In this document: positions 7,654 to 24,921 of the stretch, in pieces
Layout of the letters: every line of letters starts with the position of its first letter
Numbering within the stretch: position 1 is the stretch's first letter
Sequence record: SRR20825019_1418
DNA: 64,000 bases
Direction: 5' to 3' (one strand)
The notes under the pieces: model-generated
Database searches by the model: none
What the model was told of the DNA's origin: nothing
What the model saw: only the letters and a program-made list of their open reading frames with translations
Made by a program: the position numbers and the translations under genes

Positions 7654-8907
7654 CTATTCCCCCCGGCAATACGCGGCAGATTCCGCAAAGGCAGTTTTGA
7701 GGTTGTACCCGCTGCGGAAACTCGTAACGATTTCGCTAATCTTTGAGCGATCGCTATCGTTTGAAGGCTCTCGCAGGCAGACATTGCGGAATACTTTTCT
7801 CACCTGGCACTGGGCAAAAGCGTCGGAATTGGCAAACTCCCGCCCCAGGCTCTTGGCGCCGTTGCCGGAGCCGGGCAGGGAGCCATCCCAGCCCAGGCGC
7901 CGATTGGTGCCGGACCGCCAATAGTTGTCCCAGCCATCGTCCGGCGTCACGTATCCCTGCTCAAAGGTGGTTGAATTGATGTGGTATTTGGCGACAACGC
8001 GGGTACCCGTTTCCGGGTCCACGTCGCTAACAGAGTTGTAGATCAGCCTGCCCAGTTCGCCGTCAGGGTCCGTGTCCGCGTTGTACTGGTAGTCGTAGTA
8101 GGCAAAGGCCTGGGTCATGGGGTCCATGCCGGTATGACAGCCAACGCAGTTGCTGAGGAATACCCGGCTGTCGCCACCCGGGCTTCGCGACACATCCTGG
8201 CGGATGCGGTCCGGTGGCAGGGATACGTCCGCGACCTGCTCCAGGTCATTGCACATGTGGTTGAGCAAGGTAAACCGAAACATGGCGCGGTTGGTGCCCG
8301 CGCTGAAGAACGCCCTCGCTGCGGCCCGGGAGGTGATCACACCGGCCGTGGCGCCCGTGGGCAATTCGGAGTTCAGGCTGGACTGTGTGGTTTGCTCCAG
8401 CACGTTGTCATCACTGAGGGAGTAACCGGAGCGCTCAAGGTCCTCATAGTTGTCGTTGTTCGACGTTGAGTATGCCGAGATGCCGTTCAGGCTGGCGTTG
8501 CCCACATAGAGTATGTCGTCATATAAGACGCGTCTAAAATCATGATTATCCCGCACAATACCGATGACCGTCGCCGTGTAATCATTCAACGGCACGAAGG
8601 GGGACATCGCCTCATTTGTCCATGGTGCAACGAAATTTTTGAGGGTAACATCGTAAAACGCTGGATCTTCCATGGCCGTGTAGGCGGCAGAAACGGCGCC
8701 TGACGCACCATTGTTGGTTATGTTTGCCGCCATCTGATCGAGTACCTCCGGAGAAGGAGGAACACCGGCGATGCGTTCATGGATGCGTTTTGCCTGGTCC
8801 CGCGGGCCAGCGCTTGCGATGGTAGCGTGCGTTCCGACCAAAGCCAGCAGGACAGTGAGTAAAAATGTCCTCTTTATAAGTTGCCGGGTCGTACATAAGA
8901 CTGTCAT
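7654..8907 (-). CDS. Secreted monoheme c protein, DUF1588/DUF1585-like (planctomycete PSCyt3/PSD type)
   Basis: Signal peptide ending ASA; CVGCHTGMDPMTQAFAYYD; C-terminal FAQCQVRKVF; start at 8907 behind GAGGGA. Confidence 0.6.
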   Translation of the reverse strand: MTVLCTTRQLIKRTFLLTVLLALVGTHATIASAGPRDQAKRIHERIAGVPPSPEVLDQMAANITNNGASGAVSAAYTAMEDPAFYDVTLKNFVAPWTNEAMSPFVPLNDYTATVIGIVRDNHDFRRVLYDDILYVGNASLNGISAYSTSNNDNYEDLERSGYSLSDDNVLEQTTQSSLNSELPTGATAGVITSRAAARAFFSAGTNRAMFRFTLLNHMCNDLEQVADVSLPPDRIRQDVSRSPGGDSRVFLSNCVGCHTGMDPMTQAFAYYDYQYNADTDPDGELGRLIYNSVSDVDPETGTRVVAKYHINSTTFEQGYVTPDDGWDNYWRSGTNRRLGWDGSLPGSGNGAKSLGREFANSDAFAQCQVRKVFRNVCLREPSNDSDRSKISEIVTSFRSGYNLKTAFAESAAYCRGE

Positions 8908-9130
8908 GATCGATTCCCTCGATTTCGTTAGCATTCGCACATTAGTACCATTTTACAATTGTTCAAAGTCTAGGCGAGCTATTAACTGCGGTTTTGAGTG
9001 CTGCTCCACGTTATTACATAGCGTTACGTAAAAGGCTTGGAGCACAGGCCCCGTCTCGACTTAGCGTATGTAAATGGATTTTCAGGCCAAACAGGGTTCG
9101 TTGGTGGTGACTAAACATTACGAAAATAAA

Positions 9131-11776
9131 ATGTTCTCTTGCGTCAGTGGGTTACGTTACCATCTCGCTGTCTTGGGCCGGGTATTCGCGCTTCTTCCTG
9201 TCGCGCTCGCTGCAGGGTGTCTCCAGAGCGGCGACAGTCAGTCCCGTGACCCTGTGGTTGTTGAGAATCCGGTCGTCTTTGTAAAACGCCCCTTGCTTTT
9301 CGATGAGGACAATGGCGCGCTCATCGGTGACAACCTTGCCGAGCCTGCGGAGTTTCGTCCCGGCGCTCGCCTGTTCCTGAAGGATCGCGCGTCTCCCGAC
9401 GCGCCGTCGCGAGACATCACTTCATCCGCTTTCCCGGGGCCGCTTGGCTACGATGTCAAGGATCTCACTGTCTCTTACGATGGTACTCGCGTTCTCTTTG
9501 CCATGAGGGCGCCGGAGATTGAAGACGCGGATGAGGACGAACAGCCAACCTGGAACATTTGGGAGTACGACGTATCTTCCGGCACTCTCCGGCGTGTTAT
9601 CGAATCCAACGTCACCGCCGAAGCAGGGCAGGATATCGCGCCTGCTTACCTGCCTGATGACCGCATTGTCTTTTCCTCCACGCGGCAACGGGTGTCTCGC
9701 GCGATTTTGCTGGACGAGGGCAAGCCCCAGTATCCGGCGCTTGACGAGGAGCGCGAGGTTCCGGCCTTTGTCCTGCACGTGATGGATGCTGACGGGGACA
9801 ACATCGAGCAGATCACGTTCAACCAGAGCCACGATCTGGACCCATTGGTAACGGACGAAGGCGCCATCGTATTTAGCCGCTGGGACAATGCCGGCCAAAC
9901 CCAGGGCAACGGATTCAACCTCTATAAGGTCAATCCGGACGGCACCGGGCTCAGTTATCTTTACGGCCGCCACTCTCATGGCTCTGTCAGCGATGACGTC
10001 AACATTGAGTATCTGCGCCCGCAGGCGACGGATTCCGGTCGACTTCTGGCTCAGCTCCGTCCTACCGAAACCAACAACTTTGGGGCGGTTCCGGTTGAGA
10101 TTGATGTCGAACGTTATGTAGAGGCGGGCATCCGCGTTGACGGCAATCCCGGCTCGGCGCAAACGCCGTTGGTCAGCGGGTTGTCCCTTGGCAATGAGAT
10201 CTCGCTGCGCGGAAACTACAGCTCGGTATCCCCGTTTCTGGATGGCACACGTCGCTACCTCGTTAGCTGGAGCCCATGCCGGCTGAGGCTTGCTACTGGC
10301 AATGGCGACATCCTCAACTGCACGCAGGAGCGGATTGCCTCGGGCGCCTATCGGGCCGCCGCTCCCGTTTACGGGTTATGGTTGCTTGATATGGCGTCCG
10401 GCACCCAGCGCCCGATTCAGTCGCCCGAGGAAGGCCAACAGTTCGACGAGGCGGTACTGATGACCGAAAGGTCCCTGCCGACGTTTATTCCCGAATCGCA
10501 GTTCTCAGGCGATGCGGCGACCCTTGCAGAGGATGGTCTTGGCATACTGCAGATCCAGAGTGTCTACGACATTGATGGCGTTGATACTTCTCCGGCGGGT
10601 ATTCGGCAGACAGCCGATCCGGCGATTGTTTCTCCGGACAACCTTCCCAGGCGCTTCCTTCGACTCGAAAAGCCGGTCTCAATTCCCGATGAAGAGGTCA
10701 GGGACTTCGACAACACCGCCTTTGGGCGCAGCCAGGCGCAGTCGATGCGGGAAATTCTCGGCTACGTGCCGGTCGAGCCTGATGGGTCGGTTCGGGTGGC
10801 AGTGCCCGCCAACGTCGCGTTTGCCATCAGCGTGTTGGACGATGAAGGACGACGGATTGGCCCCCGTCACCAGAACTGGTTGAACGTCAGGCCCGGAGAA
10901 ACCCTGGCCTGCAGCGGTTGCCATAATCCTGGAAGCGCCGTACCCCATGGTCGGCCGGATGCTGGTCCGGCTCCGGCTTATACAGGAGCGCTGACCGATA
11001 TCGAATTTCCTAATGCCGACCCTGCCCTGGTTGCAATGATGGGCGAAACCATGGCGGAAACCTGGGCCCGGATTAACGGAACCCGTCGCCTCGGGCCGGA
11101 CGCTGTCTATGTCGATCAGTGGACAGACCCCGGTGATGCCAGTCTCACACCGGGCACAGCCTTCTCGCTGAGTTATGCGGACCTCGAAACGGCCGCGCCG
11201 ATCCGTCCTGAGTGCGCCGATGACTGGCGCGCCGCCTGTCGAACCGTCATCAATTACGAGCAGCACATCCATCCGCTGTGGGGGCTTGAAAGACTCATTG
11301 ATGATGGGAACGGCAACGTTATTGATGATTACTCCTGTACGGGATGTCATTCCAACACCGCCGCGGATGATACGACCCAATTGCCAGAAGCCCAGCTGGA
11401 CCTGAGTGATGGCCCTTCGTCGGATGAACCGGATCATTTCAAGTCCTACCGGGAGTTGTTGTTCAACGACAACGAACAGGAGTTGGTCGGTGACCAGCTC
11501 GTTGATGTGCAGGTGCAAGACGGGTTCCTGCTGGACGAAAATGGAGAGCAAATCCTGGATGATGACGGCAACCCAATTCCCGTTTTTGTAAACGTCAACG
11601 TGCCTCCCACCATGTCCGTGAATGGAGCGCGGGCCAGCGGTAACTTTTTCAATCTGTTCCGCGAAGGTGGGCTCCACCAGGGATTCCTCAGCCCAGATGA
11701 ACTACGTCTGATTGCCGAATGGCTCGATATCGGTGGCCAGTATTACAACAACCCCTTTGATGCTCCGGCGGACTGA
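9131..11776 (+). CDS. HzsA-related lipoprotein: TolB/PD40 beta-propeller, hydrazine-synthase-alpha-like middle domain, two c-type hemes
   Basis: Lipobox LAAGC; DIAPAYLPDDRIVFSSTR; PVEPDGSVRVAVPA...VRPGETLACSGCH; CTGCH; C-terminal ELRLIAEWLDIG; start could be anywhere from 9074 to 9131. Confidence 0.72.
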   Translation: MFSCVSGLRYHLAVLGRVFALLPVALAAGCLQSGDSQSRDPVVVENPVVFVKRPLLFDEDNGALIGDNLAEPAEFRPGARLFLKDRASPDAPSRDITSSAFPGPLGYDVKDLTVSYDGTRVLFAMRAPEIEDADEDEQPTWNIWEYDVSSGTLRRVIESNVTAEAGQDIAPAYLPDDRIVFSSTRQRVSRAILLDEGKPQYPALDEEREVPAFVLHVMDADGDNIEQITFNQSHDLDPLVTDEGAIVFSRWDNAGQTQGNGFNLYKVNPDGTGLSYLYGRHSHGSVSDDVNIEYLRPQATDSGRLLAQLRPTETNNFGAVPVEIDVERYVEAGIRVDGNPGSAQTPLVSGLSLGNEISLRGNYSSVSPFLDGTRRYLVSWSPCRLRLATGNGDILNCTQERIASGAYRAAAPVYGLWLLDMASGTQRPIQSPEEGQQFDEAVLMTERSLPTFIPESQFSGDAATLAEDGLGILQIQSVYDIDGVDTSPAGIRQTADPAIVSPDNLPRRFLRLEKPVSIPDEEVRDFDNTAFGRSQAQSMREILGYVPVEPDGSVRVAVPANVAFAISVLDDEGRRIGPRHQNWLNVRPGETLACSGCHNPGSAVPHGRPDAGPAPAYTGALTDIEFPNADPALVAMMGETMAETWARINGTRRLGPDAVYVDQWTDPGDASLTPGTAFSLSYADLETAAPIRPECADDWRAACRTVINYEQHIHPLWGLERLIDDGNGNVIDDYSCTGCHSNTAADDTTQLPEAQLDLSDGPSSDEPDHFKSYRELLFNDNEQELVGDQLVDVQVQDGFLLDENGEQILDDDGNPIPVFVNVNVPPTMSVNGARASGNFFNLFREGGLHQGFLSPDELRLIAEWLDIGGQYYNNPFDAPAD

Positions 11777-11796: not shown

Positions 11797-12549
11797 ATGA
11801 GACTGGCCCTTATACTGCTGTTTTTAACCGTGCCCCTGTCCGCCACCGCCGACTGGCTATGGGGCGGTGCTGACGAACCGATGCCCCAGGTTCAGGTGGC
11901 GGAGCCGTTTGTGGAGTGGCGTACTGGTCCGGCGGTGGGCTACCCAGTATTCCACACCAGTGAAAAGGGCGAGTGGCTGACGTTGCGCATGCGCAAGACG
12001 TCCTGGCTGAAAGTCACCGACCGCAAGGGCCGGGAAGGCTGGGTACATGTGGACGATGTGCAACTGACACTGGATGGCGAGGGCGAGCAGGTCTCACTCA
12101 GCAATCCACGTTTTGATGATTTCAGCAGCCGCCGTTGGGAGGCGGGGTTGATGATGGGCGAGTTCGAGGGCGCGGCGGTAACTGCGGTTTACGGCGGGTA
12201 TCTCCTGACCCGCAACCTGTCGGCAGAGCTCTGGGGTTCGCAGGTACTGGGAAGCGCCTCTGAAATTCGCATGGTGAACGCCAACATCGTTCACCAGCCG
12301 TTTCCGCACTGGCGTATTTCGCCGTTCTTCACGCTGGGCGTGGGGCATATTTTCATCGAGCCCAAAGCCACCCTGGCGGACCCCGGAGACCGGGATAACA
12401 GCATTGGGCACGCCGGCCTGGGCCTGCGCGCCTATGTCACGGACAACTATTTTATCCGTGCCGAGGTCAAGGACTATAAGATTTTTACCAATCGGGCAAC
12501 CAACGAAGAAGCAACAGAATGGAAAATCGGATTAAGCATATTCTTCTGA
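11797..12549 (+). CDS. SH3-like domain plus outer-membrane beta-barrel protein
   Basis: Signal peptide; bacterial SH3-like WLKVTDRKGREGWV; amphipathic strands, ISPFFTLGVG, C-terminal GLSIFF. Confidence 0.72.
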   Translation: MRLALILLFLTVPLSATADWLWGGADEPMPQVQVAEPFVEWRTGPAVGYPVFHTSEKGEWLTLRMRKTSWLKVTDRKGREGWVHVDDVQLTLDGEGEQVSLSNPRFDDFSSRRWEAGLMMGEFEGAAVTAVYGGYLLTRNLSAELWGSQVLGSASEIRMVNANIVHQPFPHWRISPFFTLGVGHIFIEPKATLADPGDRDNSIGHAGLGLRAYVTDNYFIRAEVKDYKIFTNRATNEEATEWKIGLSIFF

Positions 12550-13166
12550 CCGTCCTGCCGTTTGCGGGCCTGCTGCTGGTGCCAGCTGCTGTCAGCGCCC
12601 AGGAGGACGACCGGCCATTGATTGAGCCGGATGTGCGGCCCCAGAAGGTCGACGAGGCGTTGATCGACACCGAGAACTTCGAGATCGGTGCGTTCGCCGG
12701 CATCATCAATATCGAGGATTTTGAGTCATCATTCCTGTGGGGCGGCAAGCTGACCTACCACCTCAGCGAAACCTTCTTTTTTGAAGCCAATGTGGGCTTT
12801 GCCGAAGGCGGAGAAACCAGCTTTGAAAAGCTCGCCGGGGATGTTCAGGTGTTGTCGGACGAAGACCGGGACTACCGCTACTACAACATCAACATTGGCA
12901 TGAATGTGCTGCCCGGTGAGGCCTTCCTGACCGAGAACTATGCCTTCAATACCAACTTCTACCTGATCGGTGGGGCCGGTGCCACGGACTTTGCCGGTGA
13001 CACCCGGTTTACCTTCAACGTGGGCGCTGGCTACCAGGTATTGCTGACCGACAGCGTATCGATCCATCTGGGGGTGCGTGAACACTTCTACCGGATTGAT
13101 GTGCTGGGCGAGGAAAAAACGTCCATGAATACTGAGGTCAGTGGTGGCCTCTCTGTCTTTTTCTGA
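12519..13166 (+). CDS. Outer-membrane beta-barrel protein (GltA/GltB-like small barrel)
   Basis: Signal peptide ending VSA; FYLIGGAG and FNVGAGY strands; C-terminal GLSVFF. Confidence 0.75.
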   Translation: MENRIKHILLTVLPFAGLLLVPAAVSAQEDDRPLIEPDVRPQKVDEALIDTENFEIGAFAGIINIEDFESSFLWGGKLTYHLSETFFFEANVGFAEGGETSFEKLAGDVQVLSDEDRDYRYYNINIGMNVLPGEAFLTENYAFNTNFYLIGGAGATDFAGDTRFTFNVGAGYQVLLTDSVSIHLGVREHFYRIDVLGEEKTSMNTEVSGGLSVFF

Positions 13167-13178: not shown

Positions 13179-13679
13179 ATGATGACAACACGGTTTTTGG
13201 GATTGGCCCTGACCCTGGCGACGCTGGTTGGCGTTTCATCCGTTCAGGCCGAGGAAATGAACATTCCGGCGCCGGACTTCACTCTTGAAAGCCGTCAGGG
13301 CGAGAACCTGCGGCTACAGGATTTCCGTGGCGAAGTGGTAATGCTCAACTTCTGGGCGTCCTGGTGCGGGCCCTGTCGTCAGGAAATGCCATTGATGGAT
13401 GACCTGTACGCTCAGTACAAGGATCTCGGTTTCACCATCCTGGCGGTCAACGTGGATGAGAACCGAGACGAGGCACACCGTTTCCTGGACAAGGTGCCAG
13501 TCAGCTATCCGATCCTTTATGACCCGCAGAGCGATGTCAGCGAACAGTACGAAGTGCAGGCTATGCCGACCACGGTCATGATTGACCGCGATGGCAACGC
13601 ACGTTTTCTCCATCATGGCTACCAGCCCGGCTATGAAGACGAATACGAAACGCAGATCCGGCAACTGGTGCGGGAATAG
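13179..13679 (+). CDS. TlpA-family periplasmic thiol:disulfide oxidoreductase
   Basis: APDFTL, LNFWASWCGPCRQEMP and MPTTVMIDRDG motifs; signal peptide. Confidence 0.92.
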   Translation: MMTTRFLGLALTLATLVGVSSVQAEEMNIPAPDFTLESRQGENLRLQDFRGEVVMLNFWASWCGPCRQEMPLMDDLYAQYKDLGFTILAVNVDENRDEAHRFLDKVPVSYPILYDPQSDVSEQYEVQAMPTTVMIDRDGNARFLHHGYQPGYEDEYETQIRQLVRE

Positions 13680-13697: not shown

Positions 13698-13937
13698 ATG
13701 AACCCTTTCAAAGCAGTGATGGCATCGGCAATCGTGATCCTAATGACGGCGGGGGCGGCCGGTTGCAGTGACATCAAGCCCTGGGTGAAGCCCTATGAGC
13801 GGGACAAGCTCGCGGACCCGGTCATGAGCCTGAGCCGGCATGGAAAAGCGGACGCCTATATGCATCACGTGTACCAGGCCCGTGAATCCGCAAGGGGGGC
13901 GGAAGGCGGCTCCGGAGGTGGTTGTGGCTGTAACTGA
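13698..13937 (+). CDS. DUF4266 small lipoprotein
   Basis: Lipobox AAGC; VKPYERDKLADPVM; C-terminal GGGCGCN. Confidence 0.85.
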   Translation: MNPFKAVMASAIVILMTAGAAGCSDIKPWVKPYERDKLADPVMSLSRHGKADAYMHHVYQARESARGAEGGSGGGCGCN

Positions 13938-15090
13938 TTGCTCCCGGCTGTTCCCTGTGCTGGTAAAGGGGCTGGCGTGTGCGATGGCGTTTGTACAGAT
14001 CGCCACCGCAGCAACCCTGCCGCAAGACAACGTGGATGTCCTTTATCATCGCTATGATGGCGGTGGCATGGTCATTGATGGCCCCTCCGTGCTGGTGCGC
14101 AAGAGCGTGGGCCCCCAGGTGTCGGTGTCCGGCCAGTATTACGTGGACATGGTATCCGCCGCGTCCGTGGATGTGGTGGCGCTGGCCAGTGAATACACCG
14201 AAGAGCGCACGGAATACACCCTCGGGGTGGATTACCTCCATGAGGACTCCATCCTGAGCCTGGGCTACACCAACAGCTCAGAGAACGATTACGAAGCCAA
14301 CACCGTCTACTTTTCCGTCAGCCAGGAATTTTTCGGCGGCATGTCCACGGTCACCCTGGGTTATGCGCGGGGGCAGGACGAGGTGGGTGTCAGGGGGGAC
14401 GAATCGTTCAGCGAAGACGCTGATCGCCAGAATTACCAACTCGGTCTGAGCCAGGTCATGACCCGCAACAGCCTGCTGGGCGTTGACCTGGAAGTGGTGA
14501 CGGACGAAGGCTTCCTGGAGAACCCCTATCGCCGAAATCGCTATATCGACCCAGACGACCCCAACAACTTTCTACTCGACCAGCCCGAGCGATACCCGGA
14601 AACCCGCACCAGTTTCTCCGTGGCCACCCGGGCCTTGTACTACCTGCCTTACCGGGCATCGATTCGCGGTGAGTTCCGTTATTTCAGTGACAGCTGGGGC
14701 ATTGACGCCCAGACCTTTGAGCTCGCTTACGTTCATGCCCTGAATCCGCGCTGGACGCTGGAGGGACGTGCCCGATACTACGTCCAGGATGAGGCGGATT
14801 TCTACAGCGACCTCTACGCCTTCGAAAACTCCCAGACCCACCTGGCGCGCGACAAGGAAATGAGTGCGTTTTCCGGCACCACCCTTGGTGGCGGCGTGGT
14901 GTACGAGTGGAAACAGACCTCGTTGCCGGGCATCCAGCGCCTGCAGGCGAGCCTCTTGGTGGACTGGCTCGATTTCAGCTATGACAACTTCCGGGATGTC
15001 ACTGCGTCCGGCGAATTCCTGCCGGGGCAGGAGCCCCTTTATTCGTTCGATGCCTTCGTAACCCGGGCATCGCTGATCCTTGAATACTGA
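13924..15090 (+). CDS. DUF3570 outer-membrane beta-barrel protein
   Basis: GTG start behind GGAGGT, overlapping the DUF4266 3' end; VDMVSAAS, SSENDY, FLENPYR and YFSDSWGI motifs; ends in an aromatic residue. Confidence 0.8.
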   Translation: MAVTDCSRLFPVLVKGLACAMAFVQIATAATLPQDNVDVLYHRYDGGGMVIDGPSVLVRKSVGPQVSVSGQYYVDMVSAASVDVVALASEYTEERTEYTLGVDYLHEDSILSLGYTNSSENDYEANTVYFSVSQEFFGGMSTVTLGYARGQDEVGVRGDESFSEDADRQNYQLGLSQVMTRNSLLGVDLEVVTDEGFLENPYRRNRYIDPDDPNNFLLDQPERYPETRTSFSVATRALYYLPYRASIRGEFRYFSDSWGIDAQTFELAYVHALNPRWTLEGRARYYVQDEADFYSDLYAFENSQTHLARDKEMSAFSGTTLGGGVVYEWKQTSLPGIQRLQASLLVDWLDFSYDNFRDVTASGEFLPGQEPLYSFDAFVTRASLILEY

Positions 15091-15110
15091 CCAGGTCGGG
15101 ACGATTCAAC

Positions 15111-15662
15111 ATGATGACCTTGAAGAACACATTCGCACTGCACATTGTCAGCCTGGCACTGGCGTTCTGGCAGCCGGCAGCCATGGCCCAGGACAATAGC
15201 GAAGCCGAAACCGGCGACGGTGCGGTCTCGTTGAGCGTTGAAGAGCTGAAAAAACAGGTGATCCGCCTGAATCGGGACCTGTTCATTCTGGAAGAGGACC
15301 TGCTGTATCCCGCCAGTACCCAGTTTGCGGTGTTTCTCAGCCTCGACACCGGCGAATTCCTCAAGCTGGATTCGGTGAAACTCAAGGTCAATGACGAAAC
15401 CGTTGCCGCGCACCTGTATACCGAGCGTCAGGCCAAAGCATTGCAGCGTGGCGGTATGCAGCGCCTGCACATCGGTAACCTCAAGACGGGCGAACACGAG
15501 GTAACGGTGTTTGTTGAGGGTATTGGCCCGGATAACCGCGCCTATAAGCAGGCCGCGACCTATCAATTGCAGAAGGATACGGATACCGCTGCCCTGGAGG
15601 TCCGCATCCGCGACCGCTCATCTGATTACCAGCCCGAAGTGGCGATTGTTGAGTGGGAGTAA
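15111..15662 (+). CDS. Secreted hypothetical protein (coiled coil plus beta-rich domain)
   Basis: Signal peptide ending AMA; in operon, overlaps the next gene; no HTH seen. Confidence 0.7.
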   Translation: MMTLKNTFALHIVSLALAFWQPAAMAQDNSEAETGDGAVSLSVEELKKQVIRLNRDLFILEEDLLYPASTQFAVFLSLDTGEFLKLDSVKLKVNDETVAAHLYTERQAKALQRGGMQRLHIGNLKTGEHEVTVFVEGIGPDNRAYKQAATYQLQKDTDTAALEVRIRDRSSDYQPEVAIVEWE

Positions 15663-17689
15663 CGCGGTCCGTGATTGAGTGGCTGAACCGAATGACGACG
15701 GGCGCCCCGGCGGGACTGACTCTTGCCGGTACGCTTGCGGCGTTGCTTCATGGTCCGGTGGCTGTGGGTGATGAACTGCCGCAGCGCGCAAGTGATCCTG
15801 CCTATGGTGTGGCTCTGTATGAGTATTATCAGGGCAATGCGTTTGAGGCGCTGACCCGCCTAAACGTGGCCTCCGCCGAAGGCGGCATCGATGGTCATGG
15901 TGACCATCCGGCCCTCGTAGAGGGCGGCCTGATGCTGTCCTACGGTATGACCCACGAAGCCGGCGCGCTGTTCCGGGAGTTACTGGACGAGAACGCAGCG
16001 GTGGCGCCGGGTACCCGCAACCAGGCCTGGTTCTATCTGGGCAAAGTGTTCTACCTTGAGCAGGATTCGACCGCGGCGCGAGATGCCCTTGAGCGGGTGG
16101 ATGACGAGCTGTTGCAGGACGAAAGCGACGAGCTTTACCACGAGTGGCTGTACCTTCGGGGCCAGTTGGCCCTGTCCGGAACCAGTGGCGAAACCGTTGA
16201 CGAACTGATCGACTCGCTGCCAGAGAGCTCACCCTGGCGTGCTTACCTGCATTACAACCAGGCGGTTGGCATGCTGTCTGAAGGCCAGACGGAAGAGGCG
16301 ATGGACGCTTTGGCCAGCCTCGATAGCTTGCTTGGCGAGCTGCCCGAATTCGAGCCGCCGTTAGCCAACGAAATGTCGGCACTTCGGGAGCGGGTAAAGC
16401 TCTCCATTGGTCGTCTTCATCTCAGCAGAGGTGATTTTGCCGGCGCCATGGCCAGCCTTGAGCAGATCGCCCTCGACGGCGTGTTTTCCGACCAGGCCCT
16501 GTTCGATTATGCAGTTGCAGCCTCTCGCGAAGGAAGGGCGGGCCTGGCGTTGCAAGCGTTGAATACCCTTCAACAACGCCCTCTGTTCACACCCTGGCTA
16601 CAGCAGGTGCCTTATGCCCGCGGCTTCCTGTTCGAGCAGATGGATCGTCAACAGCAGGCGCTGCAGGCGTACCGTGAGGCTGCCAGTCATTACCAGTCAC
16701 TGAGTACTCGCCTGTCGGATGAGCGGGAGCAGCTAACCGAAGCGCGATTGATCAAGGCGCTTCGCTTCGTGCGTGAGGGCGATAGTCCCGGGCAGCCCGG
16801 ATCGATGGACGCGGAGATGGTTCGTCCCGAACCGGGAGAAACAACCGTACTGACCGATGCCTATGGGCGTGTAAAGGTCCGGCCCGGGGATTACAGCCTG
16901 GCTGGATTGTTGGCGACGGAGTCCTTTCAGCTGTCCCTGCGTGATCTGCATGAACTCTATCGGTTGCGCGATTCCCTTGGCCAATGGCAAACGCAGTTGG
17001 AATCCTTCGATATCATGCTGGAAACCCGTGCCCAACAGCGGGAGCAACGTATCCGCGAGACCCGCGACGCACTTGATGCGCTCAACGCGGATCAATGGCT
17101 GGCGCGACAGGCTGAGTACCGCAGCGCTATTGAAGACGCGTTGGCCAGAGAGGATCTGCGCTTCTTCATGACGCAGGAACAGCACGAACTGGCGGACCGA
17201 CTGGCGCAGGTGGAAAAGACCCTGTCGCAACTGCCGGAGGACGAATCCACCCGCAAACAGCGTGAAACCTTCCAGCGAATGAACGCCTATTTTAACTGGC
17301 GCATTGCTGATGATTACGCGGTCAATCGTTGGGCTGCCGAAAAGCAGCTGCGGGAACTGGACCGGGCCATGGAGGTGTTCGTCGATCAGCGCGCGTTGAT
17401 TGAACAGGAGATGGCATCGGGTGGAGAAAATCAGGCCCTGGCAGCCCGGGTAGAGGCCCGCCAAGTCGCGCTGCAACGTTTGCAGGGCGAGTTGGACAAG
17501 GCACTCTCGGCAGCACGAACGGAACTGCTCACCCTGGTGGATACTGAACTGCAGCAACAGAGCCAGGAAGTGCAGGGGTACCTCAGGGCAACCCGTCATG
17601 CAGCGGCGAGATTGGCGGACACGCTTTTCCTTGGTCGCAATGGCGCGGCGGCGAATCCGGCCACCGAAGCGGGAGGTGACCGTGACTAA
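15653..17689 (+). CDS. TPR and coiled-coil periplasmic protein (GltC-like)
   Basis: TPR-like helices (AWFYLGKVFY, YLHYNQAV) followed by a long coiled coil; start uncertain. Confidence 0.7.
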   Translation: MGVTRSVIEWLNRMTTGAPAGLTLAGTLAALLHGPVAVGDELPQRASDPAYGVALYEYYQGNAFEALTRLNVASAEGGIDGHGDHPALVEGGLMLSYGMTHEAGALFRELLDENAAVAPGTRNQAWFYLGKVFYLEQDSTAARDALERVDDELLQDESDELYHEWLYLRGQLALSGTSGETVDELIDSLPESSPWRAYLHYNQAVGMLSEGQTEEAMDALASLDSLLGELPEFEPPLANEMSALRERVKLSIGRLHLSRGDFAGAMASLEQIALDGVFSDQALFDYAVAASREGRAGLALQALNTLQQRPLFTPWLQQVPYARGFLFEQMDRQQQALQAYREAASHYQSLSTRLSDEREQLTEARLIKALRFVREGDSPGQPGSMDAEMVRPEPGETTVLTDAYGRVKVRPGDYSLAGLLATESFQLSLRDLHELYRLRDSLGQWQTQLESFDIMLETRAQQREQRIRETRDALDALNADQWLARQAEYRSAIEDALAREDLRFFMTQEQHELADRLAQVEKTLSQLPEDESTRKQRETFQRMNAYFNWRIADDYAVNRWAAEKQLRELDRAMEVFVDQRALIEQEMASGGENQALAARVEARQVALQRLQGELDKALSAARTELLTLVDTELQQQSQEVQGYLRATRHAAARLADTLFLGRNGAAANPATEAGGDRD

Positions 17690-20561
17690 GCCGGTAATCC
17701 GCAGGCGCCTGGATACCCTTCTGCCAGTTCTTGTCGCAGGCCTCCTCGGGGGCTGCCAGTCGCTTTCAATGCCGGATGTATTCGGCGGTGGGGATGATAG
17801 ACAGCCCCAGCCGGGGACTCTGGCCACTCTTCAATCCATCGAGGAAACCATCGAGCCTGCGCCGGATACCCAGGGCGGCACCAGTGAAGTATCTCTGGGG
17901 GAGGTGATGGACAGTTACCGCGCCTTGTTGCCTCTGTTGGAAGACCCCGCCAAACAGGTTGCCGTACGTCACCGGCTGGCGGACCTGGAATTCCAGCGTG
18001 CGGAAAACAAGATGGTTGAAACCGCAGAGGATGAGATGGCCGGGGCTATTGAAGCCTATGAACAACTGCTGGCTGGGTATCCGGAGCGGCCCGGTAATGA
18101 TCAGGTTCTTTACCAGTTGGCCCGCGCCTACGATCTGCGCGGCATGAGCGAAGAACACCTTGCCACACTGACAACGCTGGTGAATGAGCATCTGGATTCG
18201 CCATTCTGGGTCGAGGCGCAGTTCCGGCGCGGTGACTTGCTGTTCAGTAATCGCCGGTACACCGAGGCTGAACAGGCGTTCCGCACGGTGATCGACGCCG
18301 ACCCGGCCAGAAGGGACGACGCCTCGTTCCTGGTCAACGCCCACTACATGCTGGGCTGGAGCCAGTTCAAGCAGGGGAGTTATCGGGAAGCCCTGTTCAG
18401 CTACATCAATGTGCTGGACCTGGTCATGCCGGAAGAGCAGGACGTGGAATCCGTCGGGCAGGAATACCGCACCATGATGGAAGACCTGTTCCGCGTATTT
18501 GGCCTGTCACTGTCTTACCTGGACGGTGCGGACACCCTGCAGGCCATCTTCCGTGAGACCGGCGAGAAACCCTACGAAATCCTCGTGTATGACCGCTACA
18601 GCGACCTTTTGCTGGAGCGGGAACAGTACACAGACGCCATTGATGTATTCGAGCGCTACATCGATGCGCGGCCACTGAGCCCATGGGCGCCCCGGTACCA
18701 CATGCGTATCATCGACACCCTGGCACAGGCCGGCTTTACCGCTGACATACCGGATCGCAAGGCGGCGTTTGTTCGGGACTACGGCATTCACAGTGCCTAC
18801 CTGCAACAGGCGGATGACGAGACAGCGTTTTATATCGGGCAGCAGCTGGAAGAGCTGATCCCGGAGCTTGCCAATCGCCACTATGTACTGGCGGGCGAGA
18901 CAGAAGGTTTGGAATCGGATGAGCATTATCGTCAGGCGGCGGTGTATTACGAGGCCTTCGCGGATACCTTCCCGGCCCACCCCCGCACACCGGAGATGCT
19001 GTTCCTGCTGGGTGAAACCCATGTAGAACTGGCTCAGTGGCCGGAAGCTATCGAAGCCTTTGAACGTGTGGCCTATGACTTCCCATGGGAGGGAGAACCA
19101 CCCGAACGCGCCGCTGAGGCAGGCTATGCGTCGGTACTGGCCTTCCGCGAATATGCCAAAACCTGGCCCCGTGAGCCCGCTGAAACCTACAATGATTACA
19201 CCGAGTTCCAGCAGCTGAATCGTCAACGATTCGTGAACGCCTTTCCCGACGACCCTCGCTCGGAAGAAGTGCTCTACATTGCCATGCAGCACGAATTCGA
19301 GCGCTATCGCTATGGGCAGGTGGTTGAAATGGCGGATCGCATGATTGCCCGAGTTCCCGCGCCCGGGGCGGATATCCTCACGGAAACCTGGTTGCTGAAA
19401 GCCCACAGCCTGTTTGAGCTGGCTCGATACGCCGAGGCGGAAACCACCTATCAACAGGCCTTGCGCGTCATGGCAGAGGCCGATGAGCGGCGGCCGGATG
19501 TCATTGAAAGCCTGGCCGCGTCCGTTTTCCGTCAGGCGGAAGCGCTGGCGGATGCCGGTGATACCGCCGGAGCGGTTAGTGAATTCCTGCGTGTGGGCGT
19601 GGTTGCGCCCACCTCGGCTCTGAGGGCCAACGCTGAATACGATGCTGCCACCCTGCTGATTGAGCTTAGCCACTGGCAGGATGCCATCGATGTGATGGTG
19701 GCGTTTCGGACCCGCTACCCCGAACACGAACAAATCGATACCCTGCCAGCGCGCCTGGCACTGGCCTACCGCGAGACAGAGCAGTGGGAGAAAGCCGGGG
19801 ATGAGCTGAACAACCTGATTGCGATGGCCACCACGGACGAGGAGAAGCGCGAGAACCTGCTGATCGCCGCGGATCTGTACGAACGTGCGGGAAATACTGG
19901 CAAGGCCATCGACACCTGGCGGCGGTATGCCAATACCTATCCTGAACCACTGGACGTTTACATGGAGGCCGCCAACAGCCTGGCCGGCCTATACGACGGG
20001 ATTGGCGACGACAGCAGCCGCCGTTTCTGGCTGCGCAAGCAGATGGAGACCGTGGACGACAATCCCGACGAGGCGGACGACCGCATGCGTTACCTGGCGG
20101 CCGAAGCTTCGGCGATCCTGGCACGGGAAGCACTGGCCTATTACGACAGCATTCGCCTGACCTTGCCGCTGAATCAAAGCATGGCAGCCAAGACCGAGGC
20201 ACTGGAAGAGGCCGTTACCGCCTACCAGAAAACCGCGAGTTACGGCGTGTCGTCCTTCTCCACCGAAGCCGGCTATCAGATTGCACACATCTACGCGCGC
20301 CTCGGTCGTGACCTGATGGAGTCGGAGCGACCAGAAGGATTGTCGGAGCTGGAGTTATTCCAGTACGAGCTTTTGCTGGAAGAGCAGGCCTACCCGTTTG
20401 AGGACAACGCCATCGACATTCATGAACAGAACGCCAGCCGCGCCCGCAACGGCATTTTCGATGAATGGGTTCAGCGCAGTTACGAAGCCCTGAAAACCCT
20501 GCTTCCGGGCCGCTACAACAAACCTGAAATCACCGTAGAGGTTGTCGATGAGCTGGGTTAG
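17682..20561 (+). CDS. Large multi-TPR lipoprotein (GltD/AgmU-like)
   Basis: GTG start behind GGAGG; lipobox LLGGC; many TPRs (VLYQLARAY, AQFRRGDLLF, AHYMLGWSQFK); C-terminal LEEQAYPFEDNAIDIHE. Confidence 0.75.
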   Translation: MTKPVIRRRLDTLLPVLVAGLLGGCQSLSMPDVFGGGDDRQPQPGTLATLQSIEETIEPAPDTQGGTSEVSLGEVMDSYRALLPLLEDPAKQVAVRHRLADLEFQRAENKMVETAEDEMAGAIEAYEQLLAGYPERPGNDQVLYQLARAYDLRGMSEEHLATLTTLVNEHLDSPFWVEAQFRRGDLLFSNRRYTEAEQAFRTVIDADPARRDDASFLVNAHYMLGWSQFKQGSYREALFSYINVLDLVMPEEQDVESVGQEYRTMMEDLFRVFGLSLSYLDGADTLQAIFRETGEKPYEILVYDRYSDLLLEREQYTDAIDVFERYIDARPLSPWAPRYHMRIIDTLAQAGFTADIPDRKAAFVRDYGIHSAYLQQADDETAFYIGQQLEELIPELANRHYVLAGETEGLESDEHYRQAAVYYEAFADTFPAHPRTPEMLFLLGETHVELAQWPEAIEAFERVAYDFPWEGEPPERAAEAGYASVLAFREYAKTWPREPAETYNDYTEFQQLNRQRFVNAFPDDPRSEEVLYIAMQHEFERYRYGQVVEMADRMIARVPAPGADILTETWLLKAHSLFELARYAEAETTYQQALRVMAEADERRPDVIESLAASVFRQAEALADAGDTAGAVSEFLRVGVVAPTSALRANAEYDAATLLIELSHWQDAIDVMVAFRTRYPEHEQIDTLPARLALAYRETEQWEKAGDELNNLIAMATTDEEKRENLLIAADLYERAGNTGKAIDTWRRYANTYPEPLDVYMEAANSLAGLYDGIGDDSSRRFWLRKQMETVDDNPDEADDRMRYLAAEASAILAREALAYYDSIRLTLPLNQSMAAKTEALEEAVTAYQKTASYGVSSFSTEAGYQIAHIYARLGRDLMESERPEGLSELELFQYELLLEEQAYPFEDNAIDIHEQNASRARNGIFDEWVQRSYEALKTLLPGRYNKPEITVEVVDELG

Positions 20562-21147
20562 GTCATTCCAGGGGTGGACGCGAGTGGGCCTGCTGCTGGC
20601 TGTCGTGCTGGTGGCCGGTTGTGCGTCCTCGCCCAAAACCGACCCGGCAGATGTGGCGGAGGCAGAGCGCCAGGCCCGGGAGGCCGAGTTAACGCAGGAC
20701 TTCAGCGAGGCGGTTGCCTTGCTCAGGGGAGGGGATACCGATAACGCGCGGAACCTGTTTGAACAGATCCATCAGGCCGACCCAGAGCGAACCGGACCCT
20801 TGGCCAATCTCGGCATTATTGCACTGCAAGAGGGCAACCCCGAAGCCGCTGAAGGGTATTTCCAACAGGTGCTTGAGCGCGACCCGCAACACAGCGCAGC
20901 GTTGACCCATCTCGGAGTCATGGCCCGGGAGCAGGGCGAGTTCGAGCACGCTGAAACGCTTTACCGGCAAGCCCTGGAAGCCGATCCGAATCACCTGCCG
21001 GCCATGCTGAATTTGGCCATCCTGCTAGATATCTACCTCGGCCGGCTCGAGGAGGCTTTGCCTCTCTACGAGCAGTATCAGTCGCTGGCGGAAGAGCCGA
21101 ATCCGCGCCTCAAGGACTGGATATTCGATGTCAGGAACCGCTTATGA
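20548..21147 (+). CDS. TPR lipoprotein (GltE/AglT-like)
   Basis: Lipobox VAGC; TPRs LANLGII, ALTHLGVM and AMLNLAILLDIYL. Confidence 0.75.
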   Translation: MSWVRSFQGWTRVGLLLAVVLVAGCASSPKTDPADVAEAERQAREAELTQDFSEAVALLRGGDTDNARNLFEQIHQADPERTGPLANLGIIALQEGNPEAAEGYFQQVLERDPQHSAALTHLGVMAREQGEFEHAETLYRQALEADPNHLPAMLNLAILLDIYLGRLEEALPLYEQYQSLAEEPNPRLKDWIFDVRNRL

Positions 21148-21461
21148 CCGCTAGAAAACACCTACTCAGTCTATTGCTGTTGATCATCGCATTTCCCTGC
21201 GTCGCCCAGGACGGTGTTGTGACGATCGAAGGCACGCGGATCCGGGGCGACCAGGAAGTGCCGACGGTGCTTTACCTGGTGCCCTGGCAGCCTCCCGCCG
21301 TGCAGTCGCTGGCCCGGCCGGACGAGCAGTTGATGCTACAGCGCCCTATTGCGCCGCTGGAGCGCCAGGAATTTCAGCGCCTGGTGTCCTATCATCAGTA
21401 TTTCCGCACCTCCGTGGAGGATGGCAAGGCCTCCGGGGCCACCGATGCAATACCGGAATGA
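21144..21461 (+). CDS. Small secreted protein (possibly GltF-like)
   Basis: Signal peptide; TIEGTRIRGDQEVPTVLYLVPW; ATGA overlap with the upstream gene. Confidence 0.6.
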   Translation: MTARKHLLSLLLLIIAFPCVAQDGVVTIEGTRIRGDQEVPTVLYLVPWQPPAVQSLARPDEQLMLQRPIAPLERQEFQRLVSYHQYFRTSVEDGKASGATDAIPE

Positions 21462-21596
21462 GAACTGCGTCACACGTTGTTTGTGCACATACGCATGTAA
21501 AAACAAACCGCTACAAAGACTTGCGCGAACTTACCCCTGCCGGGGCGGTTGCCGCATACACTAGCCAGCAAATACGGACTATGGAGTGCCCTGAAA

Positions 21597-22310
21597 ATGA
21601 TTGAAACTGCCGTTCGCTTCTTCCAGGAAGGTGGCTTTTTCATGTATCCGATCGCCATCGTGCTGATTATCGGACTCATCGTTGCCGCTGAACGTTACAT
21701 ATACCTGTCTGCCCAGAAGATCACTAATCGTCGTGATTTCAACCGGTTGCACCACATGATTGGTGGTAAGGATCTTAAGGGCGCGCTGAACTACGCTACT
21801 GAGTCTGGCAGTGCCATGGCCTCCATGATCGGTTTCGGCCTCCAGCGCCTGGCCCGTCGCCAGTCCCGGGAAGAGATCGAGTACGCGATGGAAGAGGGGC
21901 TTCTGGAAGTCATGCCCCGCCTTGAGAAGCGTACCCAGTATCTGTCTACGCTGGCCAACATTTCCACGCTGATGGGCCTGCTCGGCACCATCATTGGCCT
22001 GATCGCGGCCTTTACCGCGGTTGCTGCGGCGGACCCGTCTCAAAAGGCGAGCCTGCTGTCCCAGAGTATCTCCGTAGCGATGAACACGACGGCCTTCGGC
22101 CTGATGTCTGCGATCCCGCTGCTGTTGATCCACTCAGTGCTCCAGACCAAGACCAACGAAATCATCGACAGCTTCGAGATGGCCGGCATCAAGGTGCTGA
22201 ACCTGATCACCGACGGAACAGGCGCAAGGCCGCAGGCACCGGCTGCCGCCGCTGCCCGCCCAGCAGAGCCTGCTTCCCGTGCGGCCAACCCCGCCGGGTC
22301 AGTGGCGTAA
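21597..22310 (+). CDS. MotA/TolQ/ExbB proton-channel protein (AglR-like)
   Basis: FFQEGGFFMYPI, STLMGLLGTIIGLI and ISVAMNTTAFGL motifs. Confidence 0.9.
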   Translation: MIETAVRFFQEGGFFMYPIAIVLIIGLIVAAERYIYLSAQKITNRRDFNRLHHMIGGKDLKGALNYATESGSAMASMIGFGLQRLARRQSREEIEYAMEEGLLEVMPRLEKRTQYLSTLANISTLMGLLGTIIGLIAAFTAVAAADPSQKASLLSQSISVAMNTTAFGLMSAIPLLLIHSVLQTKTNEIIDSFEMAGIKVLNLITDGTGARPQAPAAAAARPAEPASRAANPAGSVA

Positions 22311-22334
22311 CGGTTCAATCAGGGAGCTAAAGCC

Positions 22335-22832
22335 ATGAGGCGTAAGCATCGTCGGCTTCGCAGCGAAGCGGACCTGGATATCACACCGTTCATGAACCTG
22401 ATGATCGTGCTGGTTCCGGTCCTGCTGCTGAATATGGTGTTTGCACACACCAGCGTGCTGGAGCTGAATTTCCCAGATGTGGATAGCAGTTCCGTAGAAG
22501 AACAGAAAGAACTCCAGTTACAGGTCGTCATTTTCGAAGACCAGCTTGTGGTGTCCGACAACCAGGGCGGCGTGATCAAGACCATTGCCAACCGCGAAGC
22601 GGCCCACGACTTCGAGATGCTCGGTAAGGTCATGAAGGAGCTTAAGGGCAGGCTCCCGGACAAACGCAACATCATCATTATGCCGTCCAGCGACACCTCA
22701 TATCAGACGCTGGTGTCGGTGATGGACAAGGTGCGCTCTTACGAAGCGGTTGTCGCAGGTGATGTCGTTGAGGCCGAGCTGTTCCCCGAGATCTCACTGG
22801 GCGACGCACCGAAGAGGGCTGAACAGTCATGA
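22335..22832 (+). CDS. ExbD/TolR-family protein, variant lacking the conserved transmembrane Asp
   Basis: DLDITPFMNLMIVLV transmembrane segment; YQTLVSVMD. Confidence 0.85.
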   Translation: MRRKHRRLRSEADLDITPFMNLMIVLVPVLLLNMVFAHTSVLELNFPDVDSSSVEEQKELQLQVVIFEDQLVVSDNQGGVIKTIANREAAHDFEMLGKVMKELKGRLPDKRNIIIMPSSDTSYQTLVSVMDKVRSYEAVVAGDVVEAELFPEISLGDAPKRAEQS

Positions 22833-23329
22833 AAGAGTCTGCGAAAGCCAAACGCCTGAAGCGCCATCATCGGCGGGGCAAACAACAGAGCAAGCTGAAC
22901 CTGGTGTCGTTGATGGACATCTTTACCATCCTGGTGTTCTTCCTGATGGTGAATTCATCCTCCGATGTGCAGGTGCTGAACCAGGACAACGCCATCAAGC
23001 TGCCGGACTCCAGTGCCCAGCAGCCCCCGGGTGATGTGCTCGCGCTGACGGTCACGGACAACGATATCCTGGTGAACGGCCGTGTTGTGATGAAGCGGGA
23101 CGTGCTCCAGGCCTTTAGTGGTCAGGTAGAGCCCGCCCTGAAGGAAGAGCTGGACTACCAGGCCAGCCGCTCCAGTGCTCCGGCACCGGATGCAGGGCGC
23201 CCCATCACCATCCTTGCCGATCGCGAACTGCCCTATGAACTGTTGAAGAAAATCATGTCCACCTGCGTGGACGCGGGCTACGCCAGTATTTCACTGGCTG
23301 TAAACCAGAAAACAGAGCAGGGAGCCTAG
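22829..23329 (+). CDS. ExbD/TolR-family protein (AglQ/AglS-like)
   Basis: LNLVSLMDIFTILVFFL; ILADRELPYELLKKIM...AGYASISLA. Confidence 0.88.
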   Translation: MKESAKAKRLKRHHRRGKQQSKLNLVSLMDIFTILVFFLMVNSSSDVQVLNQDNAIKLPDSSAQQPPGDVLALTVTDNDILVNGRVVMKRDVLQAFSGQVEPALKEELDYQASRSSAPAPDAGRPITILADRELPYELLKKIMSTCVDAGYASISLAVNQKTEQGA

Positions 23330-23331
23330 CT

Positions 23332-24333
23332 GTGGCAGAGTATCGTCAGGGATTGCCCTGGAATCAGGAGGCCGGAGAACGCAAGCGCTTGTTTGCGGTT
23401 GCTACCCTCGTGGTCCCGTTGTTCCTTGTGGCAGCCGCGTACATCACCTGGGTTGAGTTGCCGGAGCAGGATCGCAAAGAGCGTGAAGCCCTGCCGCCGC
23501 AATTGGCGAAGCTGATTGTTGAGAAACAGGAACCGCCACCACCCCCGGAACTGAAAGCGCCGGAACCCGAGCCTGAGCCCGAACTTGAACCAGAGAAGCC
23601 GGAACCGGAAGAGCAACCCGTTGCCGAACCCGAGGCCCAGGTACAGCCGCCCGCGCCGGAGCCTGAGCCAGAACCCGAGCCCCAGGTGGCGGAGAAGCCG
23701 GAGCCAACGCAGCAGGATGTCGAAAAAGCCCGGGAAAAGGCAAAAAACACCGGTATCCTCGCCATGGGCGATGAGCTCTCCAAGCTGAGTGCGCTGGGTA
23801 AATCCGTCAAACTGGATACACCGGCCACCGTCACAACGGCCGAACCAATCGCCCGCAAGACGGGTGATACCCTGGCACAAAAGGCTAACACCGGCCGCAG
23901 CTCCGGCGTGGATGAATCCGGCCTGACCCGCGAAACCCGCGAGGTTGCGCTGGCGGAACGGCAACGAGCCCAGGTAGAGGAAGCGGAAGAAGTGGTCGCC
24001 CAGGCGAAAGCCGCCGAGCGTGAGCAGCAGGCCGCTGCCAGCAAGCGCAGCCGCGAAGAGCTCCGTCGCACCATGGACGCCAACAAATCGGCCATCTACA
24101 GCATCTACAACCGCGAACTGCGCCGCAAACCCTCACTGCAGGGCAGCGTGACGCCGGAACTGGTGATCGAAGAGAATGGGGCGGTCTCAAGCTGTTCGGT
24201 GGTGGAATCCACCCTGAACGAGCCAGCCCTTGAAAAGAAAATCTGCAACCGTCTGCGATTGGTGGATTTCGGCGCCCGCCCGGGTGTCGACAGGACGACT
24301 ATCCGCTATCCGATCGAATTGCTGTCTGGTTGA
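23332..24333 (+). CDS. TonB/TolA-like energy transducer with an AgmX/PglI (GltG)-type C-terminal domain
   Basis: Single N-terminal TM helix; Pro/Glu-rich spacer; C-terminal IYSIYNRELRRKPSLQGSV...IEENGAV...CNRLR. Confidence 0.8.
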   Translation: MAEYRQGLPWNQEAGERKRLFAVATLVVPLFLVAAAYITWVELPEQDRKEREALPPQLAKLIVEKQEPPPPPELKAPEPEPEPELEPEKPEPEEQPVAEPEAQVQPPAPEPEPEPEPQVAEKPEPTQQDVEKAREKAKNTGILAMGDELSKLSALGKSVKLDTPATVTTAEPIARKTGDTLAQKANTGRSSGVDESGLTRETREVALAERQRAQVEEAEEVVAQAKAAEREQQAAASKRSREELRRTMDANKSAIYSIYNRELRRKPSLQGSVTPELVIEENGAVSSCSVVESTLNEPALEKKICNRLRLVDFGARPGVDRTTIRYPIELLSG

Positions 24334-24353
24334 ACGGACGTTATTGGCTACCG

Positions 24354-24377
24354 AGTCCCGGCCACCAGGCCGGGACT
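24354..24377. terminator. Perfect 10-bp hairpin ending the envelope operon
   Basis: AGTCCCGGCC-acca-GGCCGGGACT between convergent genes; no clear U tract. Confidence 0.6.
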
Positions 24378-24393
24378 AACCTGCAATCAGCGA

Positions 24394-24771: not shown

Positions 24772-24789
24772 GTCGGGCCAACTCCTTGT

Positions 24790-24867
24790 TAGTAACGCCC
24801 GGCTCTCGCGCCGGTTTGGAGCTGAGAAGCAGCGGAAAATCGGTTGCTGTGCAACCGATTGTTAAAT
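24790..24867 (-). mobile_element. Integron attC recombination site
   Basis: - strand ATTTAAC-AATCG-GTTGCAC...CCGATTT...AAACCGG...GAGAGCCGGGC-GTTACTA: R'', unpaired spacer, L boxes and R' in an imperfect palindrome of about 78 bp. Confidence 0.8.
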
Positions 24868-24913: not shown

Positions 24914-24921
24914 TCGATCTT

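Follow-up and report, generated by a model that had tools for sequence, protein, structure and literature searches.

An Agl-Glt-class motor operon adjoining outer-membrane barrel and haem, thiol and flavin genes

What does a motor of the ExbB-ExbD family drive when no TonB-dependent receptor stands nearby? The question is raised by nine open reading frames (ORFs) at positions 15111 to 24333 of SRR20825019_1418, a stretch of 64,000 nucleotides (the whole of it is called the window here). A sequence-only reading of this DNA had taken the genes for an Agl-Glt-like core, distinct from the Ton and Tol systems, with a small secreted protein as a possible partner of the transducer. In the analysis presented here, family searches, gene order and phylogeny assigned the operon almost certainly to the Agl-Glt core complex. 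The machine is a known one: its motor class was published by Luciano 2011 (PMC3169522) and listed there for Marinobacter. The additions made here are a larger core and named partners. The outer-membrane barrels and the haem, thiol and flavin genes upstream are the better clue to the output of the motor.

Motor class and gene order

The motor region contains the following genes.

15111..15662, plus strand: ninth core gene, secreted helix and transthyretin-like beta-sandwich (predicted structure, conserved position)
15653..17689, plus strand: GltC-like periplasmic tetratricopeptide repeat (TPR) protein (NF033756 E 4e-5, far below the cut-off; size and position as Maqu_1814)
17598..20561, plus strand: GltD-like TPR lipoprotein scaffold (TPR families; lipobox)
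20542..21147, plus strand: GltE-like TPR lipoprotein (NF033758 E 4e-12, below the cut-off; lipobox)
21144..21461, plus strand: small secreted protein of 105 amino acids (aa), probable GltF/CglF orthologue (gene position, weak profile similarity)
21549..22310, plus strand: AglR (ExbB/TolQ family) channel subunit (PF01618 E 1.8e-28; start probably 21597)
22335..22832, plus strand: AglQ-type ExbD plug, Asn21 replacing the proton-carrying Asp (PF02472; alignment)
22829..23329, plus strand: AglS-type ExbD plug, Asp30 (PF02472; alignment)
23332..24333, plus strand: GltG-type transducer (NF033768 above the cut-off; NF033760 E 3e-12)

Pfam and NCBIfam searches located every gene that the sequence-only reading had listed, namely three TPR genes, the small secreted protein, ExbB, two ExbD and the transducer; the first gene, 15111-15662, had gone unnamed there. 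The nine ORFs are co-directional and, as had been remarked, overlapping or tightly spaced (gaps of -92 to +87 bp). Seven of them, gltC, gltD, gltE, gltG, aglR, aglQ and aglS, form the published core and are clustered in this one region of the window. The GltC-like profile detected myxobacterial genes in the GltC position, and the GltD-like profile scored 156-334 bits on full-length myxobacterial GltD.

The transducer (333 aa) has a short N-terminus, one hydrophobic helix, a Pro/Glu-rich linker and an AgmX/PglI C-domain. Its C-terminus, already described as of the AgmX/PglI type, scored 67.4 bits on NF033768 (AgmX/PglI, NCBIfam; cut-off 40) and 19.6 bits on the canonical TonB-C model TIGR01352, under the cut-off of 27.1. 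The GltG profile also picked up TonB C-domains in the PDB (E 4e-4). No longer GltG homologues came up in a word search. All motor proteins of the window fell below every ExbB, TolQ and TonB equivalog cut-off.

Related loci were collected from about 400 Gammaproteobacteria (400 scored for the GltG domain; 401, including the unpublished genome G038, for the other counts). The GltG-type domain exceeded the cut-off in 78 of the 400. Up to 20 kb upstream was fetched for 80 of the 92 GltG matches over the cut-off; two copies in the nearest genome, G001, and mostly short contigs made up the remainder. G001 shares 74% of words, with many frameshifts in this locus that were taken as assembly errors. 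The genes gltD, aglR and gltG and the small gene occurred together in 69 of the 80 loci.

An AglR tree was calculated as a quick IQ-TREE run of 51 rows with no bootstrap and with long-branch warnings. It included 31 of the 78 AglR proteins of related loci, taken from every third locus and from six picked in addition. The ExbB of the window, the second copy of G001, the 31 related proteins, a plasmid copy and two myxobacterial proteins formed one branch, apart from E. coli TolQ and ExbB (SH-like approximate likelihood-ratio test, SH-aLRT, 98); the AglR identity of the two myxobacterial rows was judged from tandem ExbD genes and sizes. The tree bears out the claim of a motor class apart from Ton and Tol, which was already in print in 2011 (PMC3169522). 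The window motor shares its protein families with the E. coli ExbB-ExbD-TonB and TolQ-TolR-TolA systems, and the GltG C-domain resembles TonB-C. It differs from both in its separate clade and in its two different plugs with one Asp, and the larger window proteins scanned include no plugged 22-stranded receptor and no TolB or Pal. The Pfam scan covered 43 larger proteins (20 + 23) and found no TonB-dependent receptor, TolB or Pal among them. The observation that none is nearby thus stood, but three outer-membrane barrels are encoded upstream, so outer-membrane partners exist.

The core loci of Gammaproteobacteria given by Luciano 2011 are Maqu_1807-1814, CJA_3312-3319, Mpe_A1224-1231 and Sde_3560-3567 (PMC3169522). 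They show gltC, gltD, gltE, a small extra gene, aglR, aglQ, aglS and gltG in the same order as the window and with like sizes; in Marinobacter, two copies per genome are seen in both. Seven core genes were counted in that study; gltF, gltA and gltB were called exclusive to Myxococcales/Bdellovibrionales, and the extra small gene was described as having no homologue in these orders (PMC3169522). In the window, by contrast, this gene is probably gltF, one more gene (the ninth) stands first in the operon, and the core adjoins barrels of the GltA/B family together with a haem/thiol/flavin module.

The ninth gene was present in 57 of the 80 loci, and its homologue leads the operon in all six Myxococcota loci that reach that far. 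The model of its product had a predicted local distance difference test score (pLDDT) of 91, with a best fold match of Z 8.9 (root-mean-square deviation 2.9, 98 residues). The automatic database name, "AraC family regulator", looks wrong for a protein with a signal-like N-terminus, a beta-sandwich fold and no Pfam match.

Several related loci depart from this arrangement. Seven (L010, L056, L059, L064, L076, L078 and L083) carry a single TPR ORF of 1350-1535 aa in place of gltC and gltD, probably a fusion. Loci linked to type VI secretion consist of aglR-aglQ-aglS-gltG and lack TPR or GltF-like genes; they are preceded by a Ser/Thr kinase with a C-terminal FGE-like domain. The same type of kinase lies beside the motor in L011 and L042, and the type VI-linked and kinase-linked AglR proteins form one branch of the tree. 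The Vibrio alginolyticus plasmid pMBL287 (L087:1627-12520) encodes a divergent motor, with an invasin-like Ig/Lcl protein, a barrel, small proteins, ExbB, two ExbD, whose channel residues are Ser and Asp, and a transducer of 324 aa. Its 80-aa gene in the GltF position matched no GltF or small-protein profile.

The small secreted protein and the motor plugs

The product of 21144-21461 is probably a GltF orthologue, and gene order is stronger evidence for this identity than profile similarity. The small gene was found in 70 of the 80 loci, in 68 of them between gltE/gltD and aglR. Nine Myxococcota loci, selected for a GltF-like match some 1 kb away from an ExbD match, showed the order of the window: ninth gene-gltC-gltD-gltE-gltF-aglR-aglQ-aglS-gltG. 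On these maps GltF was placed after gltE in eight loci, and in the remaining one by match position. The small gene is also the "additional gene" of Luciano 2011, since the locus-tag gaps of that study (Maqu_1811, CJA_3316 and Mpe_A1227) coincide with the site of the 105-aa gene, after gltE and before aglR. Named homologues of the protein are nearly all from Marinobacter.

Two GltF profiles were built from the myxobacterial genome G402 and its phylum, one broad and one of a subfamily, the latter for the paralogue similar to the G5 cluster of M. xanthus, a correspondence drawn from the sizes in Table S3. With the subfamily profile, small-protein ORFs took the top 4 ranks among 9201 ORFs, yet the best E was only 0.054. 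Alignment of the small protein with this profile by hhalign gave P 8.6e-4 and a score of 20.1, above 200 of 200 shuffles, at a probability of only 24%; an alternative small-protein alignment reached only P 0.023. The similarity is weak but specific and lies over the conserved strand. In the reverse direction, the gammaproteobacterial small-protein profile found no GltF in G402 and ranked GltF ORFs no better than E 4.6 in one search and E 2.4 in another. The NCBIfam model NF033764 (CglF) matched 0 of 31 and 0 of 70 small-protein members and gave no match at the gene in five genomes; the gamma-like myxobacterial GltF paralogue itself scores just 30.3 bits on this model. ESM Atlas returned only unnamed clusters. 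An identity as ExtJ was discarded, one of 31 members matching at E 0.13, which is chance.

The conserved part of the small protein is the motif GxxExPxxLYxVPW, in which G, E, P, P and W are invariant or nearly so. The segment TIEGTRIRG, previously suggested to act like a TonB box, is part of this region but forms only its variable front. The proposal that the small protein is the TonB-box-like partner of the transducer is plausible from the GltF position, the weak profile similarity over that strand and a published model, but complex prediction with the GltG C-domain gave only a weak pass (0.36 against 0.00 for the best control). The partner had a pLDDT of 49-50, the runs agreed in 93% of contacts, and no interface was returned; alignments were not used by the folding program. 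In the calibration, scores of 0.60 or less were obtained by only 5 of 78 solved complexes and by all four passing mismatches. The published model, that of Cambillau and Mignot 2025, is an AlphaFold prediction rather than an experiment. In it, the TonB-like domain of GltG is joined by a parallel strand from GltF, whose helix contacts GltC; GltC also takes up the N-terminal strand of GltB, and a beta-propeller adhesin sits on the barrels (PMC11761067).

The two plugs differ at the channel position. Where E. coli ExbD and TolR carry the channel Asp, 74 of 78 aligned AglQ-type plugs have Asn; the AglS-type plug has Asp (Asp30 in the window) in 76 of 76, an indirect sign at most of proton-driven activity. 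In Myxococcus, the aglQ mutation D28N abolishes proton conductance and paralyses the motor (PMC3858216). Stand-alone myxobacterial motors (30 loci) had Asp in all 25 scored AglQ and all 29 scored AglS. Among the nine-gene operons of Myxococcota (L242-L250), 8 of 9 keep one Asp only, in either subunit: AglQ has Asn in six, AglQ Asp is combined with AglS Ala in two, and both are Asp in one. That one Asp is always kept suggests a working channel.

Outer-membrane barrels and the haem, thiol and flavin genes

The co-directional run of genes reaches upstream to 9074, about 6 kb before the motor genes. The genes of this flank are listed below.

2478..3494, plus strand: ApbE flavin transferase, accessory module (PF02424 E 7.8e-83; in 21 of 80 related 20-kb loci)
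3541..5103, minus strand: protein exported by twin-arginine translocation (Tat), no family matched (TRREFI motif; Tat motif in 10 of 12 relatives)
5110..7647, minus strand: LamG-domain lipoprotein with two CxxCH at 76 and 191 (PF13385 E 5e-20; lipobox)
7654..8940, minus strand: secreted protein with one CxxCH (265), weakly DUF1585-like (PF07624 E 0.0046, below the cut-off)
9074..11776, plus strand: HzsA-like (hydrazine-synthase-alpha-like) dihaem lipoprotein, candidate surface cargo (PF18582 E 1e-16; start probably about 9131)
11797..12549, plus strand: SH3 domain and small outer-membrane barrel, distant GltA/B family (PF06347, PF13505; TIGR04565 31.9 bits, below the cut-off)
12519..13166, plus strand: GltA/GltB-family outer-membrane barrel, conserved N-terminal arm (TIGR04565 151.9 bits, cut-off 60)
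13179..13679, plus strand: TlpA/ResA-like thioredoxin (PF08534 E 7e-31)
13698..13937, plus strand: DUF4266 lipoprotein with C-terminal GCGCN (PF14086 E 1.5e-14)
13840..15090, plus strand: DUF3570, predicted 16-stranded barrel without plug domain (PF12094 E 9e-36; real start later than 13840)

The profile of the 12519..13166 barrel matched barrels beside myxobacterial gltC (best E 2e-12), and that of the 11797..12549 SH3-barrel matched myxobacterial barrels at E 2e-5. GltA/B relatives are therefore not confined to myxobacteria. The N-terminal arm of the 12519..13166 barrel was conserved in 17 sequences. The HzsA-like gene stands before the barrels, where Myxococcus has gltK. Its profile matched PDB 5c2v along its length (E 7.7e-21), and both CxxCH motifs were invariant in 19 aligned sequences. 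A lipobox pattern was found in 13 of 20 relatives, the AGC site of the window being recognised by eye only. The Tat-exported protein gave no match in Pfam, NCBIfam or the PDB.

The AlphaFold2 model of the DUF3570 protein (pLDDT 87.9) had 16 long strands (from the DSSP list), porin-type fold matches and no plug. At its flavinylation site the window has SAAS, non-canonical with respect to [S/T]GA[S/T], which makes flavinylation of this copy uncertain; 5 of 13 relatives have SGAS and seven SSAS. Flavinylation of a Chlorobium DUF3570 was shown by Meheust et al. 2021, who connected a minority of DUF3570/ApbE clusters with iron transporters (PMC8238504). The apbE, DUF3570, thioredoxin and DUF4266 genes of those clusters are likewise clustered in the window, which also encodes dsbD (54055-55986), a possible electron source for the TlpA/DUF4266 pair. 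Unlike the published clusters, the window has a DUF3570 of a divergent subfamily, with SAAS, set between barrels and a proton motor. Neither ExbB nor the word "tetratricopeptide" is mentioned in the main text of PMC8238504.

Across the sample, the TIGR04565 barrel occurred in 55 of 401 genomes, 53 of which also had the GltG domain. The HzsA-like protein occurred in 53 of 401, and 50 of the 53 had the GltG domain. In 46 of the 51 genomes with both, the HzsA-like gene lay no more than 4 kb from the barrel. The barrel was within 30 kb of gltG in 24 of 53 genomes, and the haem/barrel module adjoins the motor in 22 of the 80 loci, in several orders and orientations. The dependence of barrel on motor runs one way only. 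In L029, L039, L061 and L066 the module varies: the HzsA-like protein has three CxxCH, and its gene is followed by one more, of about 170 aa and with no Pfam family.

A promoter/terminator scan of the locus gave counts below those of shuffled sequence. Contigs of RNA libraries (four studies, relatives) covered 30 of 30 bins of 5500-25400, a coverage in which DNA carry-over is possible and which shows neither expression level nor a single transcript. Directly after gltG, a stretch of lower GC contains two small genes (24844-25424) that are not at this place in G001; we take them to resemble a YefM-YoeB toxin-antitoxin pair. Further downstream (32770-37391), a MalT-type regulator gene has as neighbours genes for a C39 peptidase-like protein, an unassigned secreted protein, a barrel of the FadL type and a MalM-like protein.

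Output of the motor

The identity of the genes, their order, the clade of the motor and its co-occurrence with the barrel and HzsA-like genes were observed directly. The Agl-Glt and Agl-Nfs machines of M. xanthus (PMC3858216, PMC9946355, PMC11761067) likewise have a heterodimeric plug, a GltG whose C-domain is TonB-like, a TPR shaft, a bridge formed by GltF (a probable one here) and tandem barrels before gltC. Unlike in M. xanthus, GltG here has no FHA region (333 aa versus about 640), AglQ has Asn where the Myxococcus motor needs Asp28, and the cargo candidate is a dihaem HzsA-like lipoprotein in place of the VWA adhesin CglB. Islam et al. 2023 mapped all glt genes over nine Gammaproteobacteria in a figure (PMC9946355). 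Outside the content of that map, searches of an open-access library turned up no publication in which the extra gene is identified as GltF or the gammaproteobacterial core is connected with these barrels or haem genes.

We tentatively favour an Agl-Glt-class machine that spans the envelope and is driven by protons; its output here may be an outer-membrane haem complex that is loaded, exposed or cycled by the motor. Transferred from the Myxococcus AlphaFold model, proton flow through an AglR5-AglQ-AglS channel would drive GltG, whose linker would cross the wall and wrap the GltD shaft. The GltF-like protein would lend a beta-strand to the TonB-like domain of GltG, as a soluble stand-in for a TonB box, and give its helix to GltC, so that GltF and GltD would both connect to GltC; GltC in turn would grip the N-terminal arms of two GltA/B-type barrels. 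In the copy studied here, the barrels may hold the HzsA-like dihaem beta-propeller lipoprotein, which the motor would load, expose or cycle. TlpA, DUF4266, the DUF3570 barrel and ApbE could supply thiol and flavin redox partners. A wider scenario, which we consider doubtful, is that the ancestral Agl-Glt system was a nine-gene operon plus barrel pair with a one-Asp asymmetric motor; in marine Gammaproteobacteria it would display or cycle a surface haem/flavin redox complex around the HzsA-like lipoprotein, and gliding of Myxococcus would have arisen when the cargo was swapped for an adhesin and a second Asp was put to use.

Several observations weigh against a haem complex as the output or against parts of this assignment. 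The TIGR04565 barrel is missing from 25 of the 78 motor genomes. G001 has a second, diverged copy of the nine-gene core (C1, about 3134500-3143100; L005-L006) without barrels or haem genes, and 4 of the 80 loci (L012, L022, L032 and L043) place the motor genes directly after a type VI secretion cluster. The barrel-free genomes, the bare second copy and the type VI-linked loci imply that the motor is not specific to a haem cargo. DUF3570 occurred in 92 of 401 genomes, 28 of which had no motor (hand count), and related genomes in the sample are not independent observations. One of the two plugs lacks the proton-carrying Asp. The similarity to GltF is weak, with the hhalign probability of 24% for the subfamily profile and 4.6% for the broad profile (P 0.0087, score 15.5, where column shuffles reach 23.8; alignment gapless over 34 columns).

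The barrel-free genomes would fit a general envelope transporter, in which the core moves lipoproteins or a surface polymer and the haem module is an optional client or co-inherited neighbour. Housekeeping genes make up most of what directly precedes the core in other loci (44 scanned), other partners are the type VI secretion cluster and the invasin-like protein and barrel on the Vibrio plasmid, and Agl-Nfs, the spore-coat machine of Myxococcus, is a precedent (PMC3858216). We rate this explanation as rather improbable. Against it, genomes with the barrel or the HzsA-like gene almost always have the motor as well (exceptions are 2 of 55 and 3 of 53, and two of these genomes are in 500 and 810 contigs), and both genes are repeatedly fused into the motor operon. 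Energised uptake appears unlikely. In this reading the motor would open or cycle either the DUF3570 barrel or the pair of barrels, and the metal or organic substrate imported in this way would be reduced or oxidised by the haem/flavin proteins. The predicted 16-stranded pore directly upstream of the core, the link of a minority of DUF3570/ApbE clusters with iron transporters (PMC8238504) and the TonB-like fold of GltG speak for it. Against it, DUF3570 lacks a plug domain that could be pulled and is often present where the motor is not, and the small GltA/B-type barrels are scaffolds in Myxococcus (PMC11761067).

Homologous barrels, GltC-G and motor would also suit a surface motility or adhesion machine as in Myxococcus, which we hold to be very unlikely here. 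GltG lacks the cytoplasmic FHA region. G001 contains only two AgmX/PglI domains (NF033768), both in gltG, so no GltJ was seen. CglD (model NF033765, which is not CglB) exceeded the cut-off only in the myxobacterial genome, CglB, GltH, GltI and GltK being outside the search, and Luciano 2011 argued that the core alone is insufficient for motility (PMC3169522). Least probable, and by our estimate only a slight chance, is a spare ExbBD-TonB or TolQRA set that supplies energy in trans to TonB-dependent receptors or to TolB-Pal. The folds are shared, and canonical TonB genes are few in G001, against 14 receptor matches. None of these matches lies inside the locus, however; tolQ/tolA/tolB are encoded about 95 kb away and canonical TonB elsewhere, and the equivalog scores, the separate clade and the strict linkage of the motor to the TPR scaffold and GltF-like gene all argue against such a set.

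What the gammaproteobacterial core does has been a question since 2011, and the core is common, as the 78 of 400 sampled genomes with a GltG-type domain show. With partners in the outer membrane named and a cargo candidate proposed, in a genus that can be cultured, the question of its function becomes testable. A plug that has only one Asp by nature bears on the idea that alternation between two acids is obligatory in 5:2 motors. Should the small gene prove to be gltF and the barrels relatives of gltA/B, they would not be myxobacterial inventions, and the published scenario for the origin of gliding would change.

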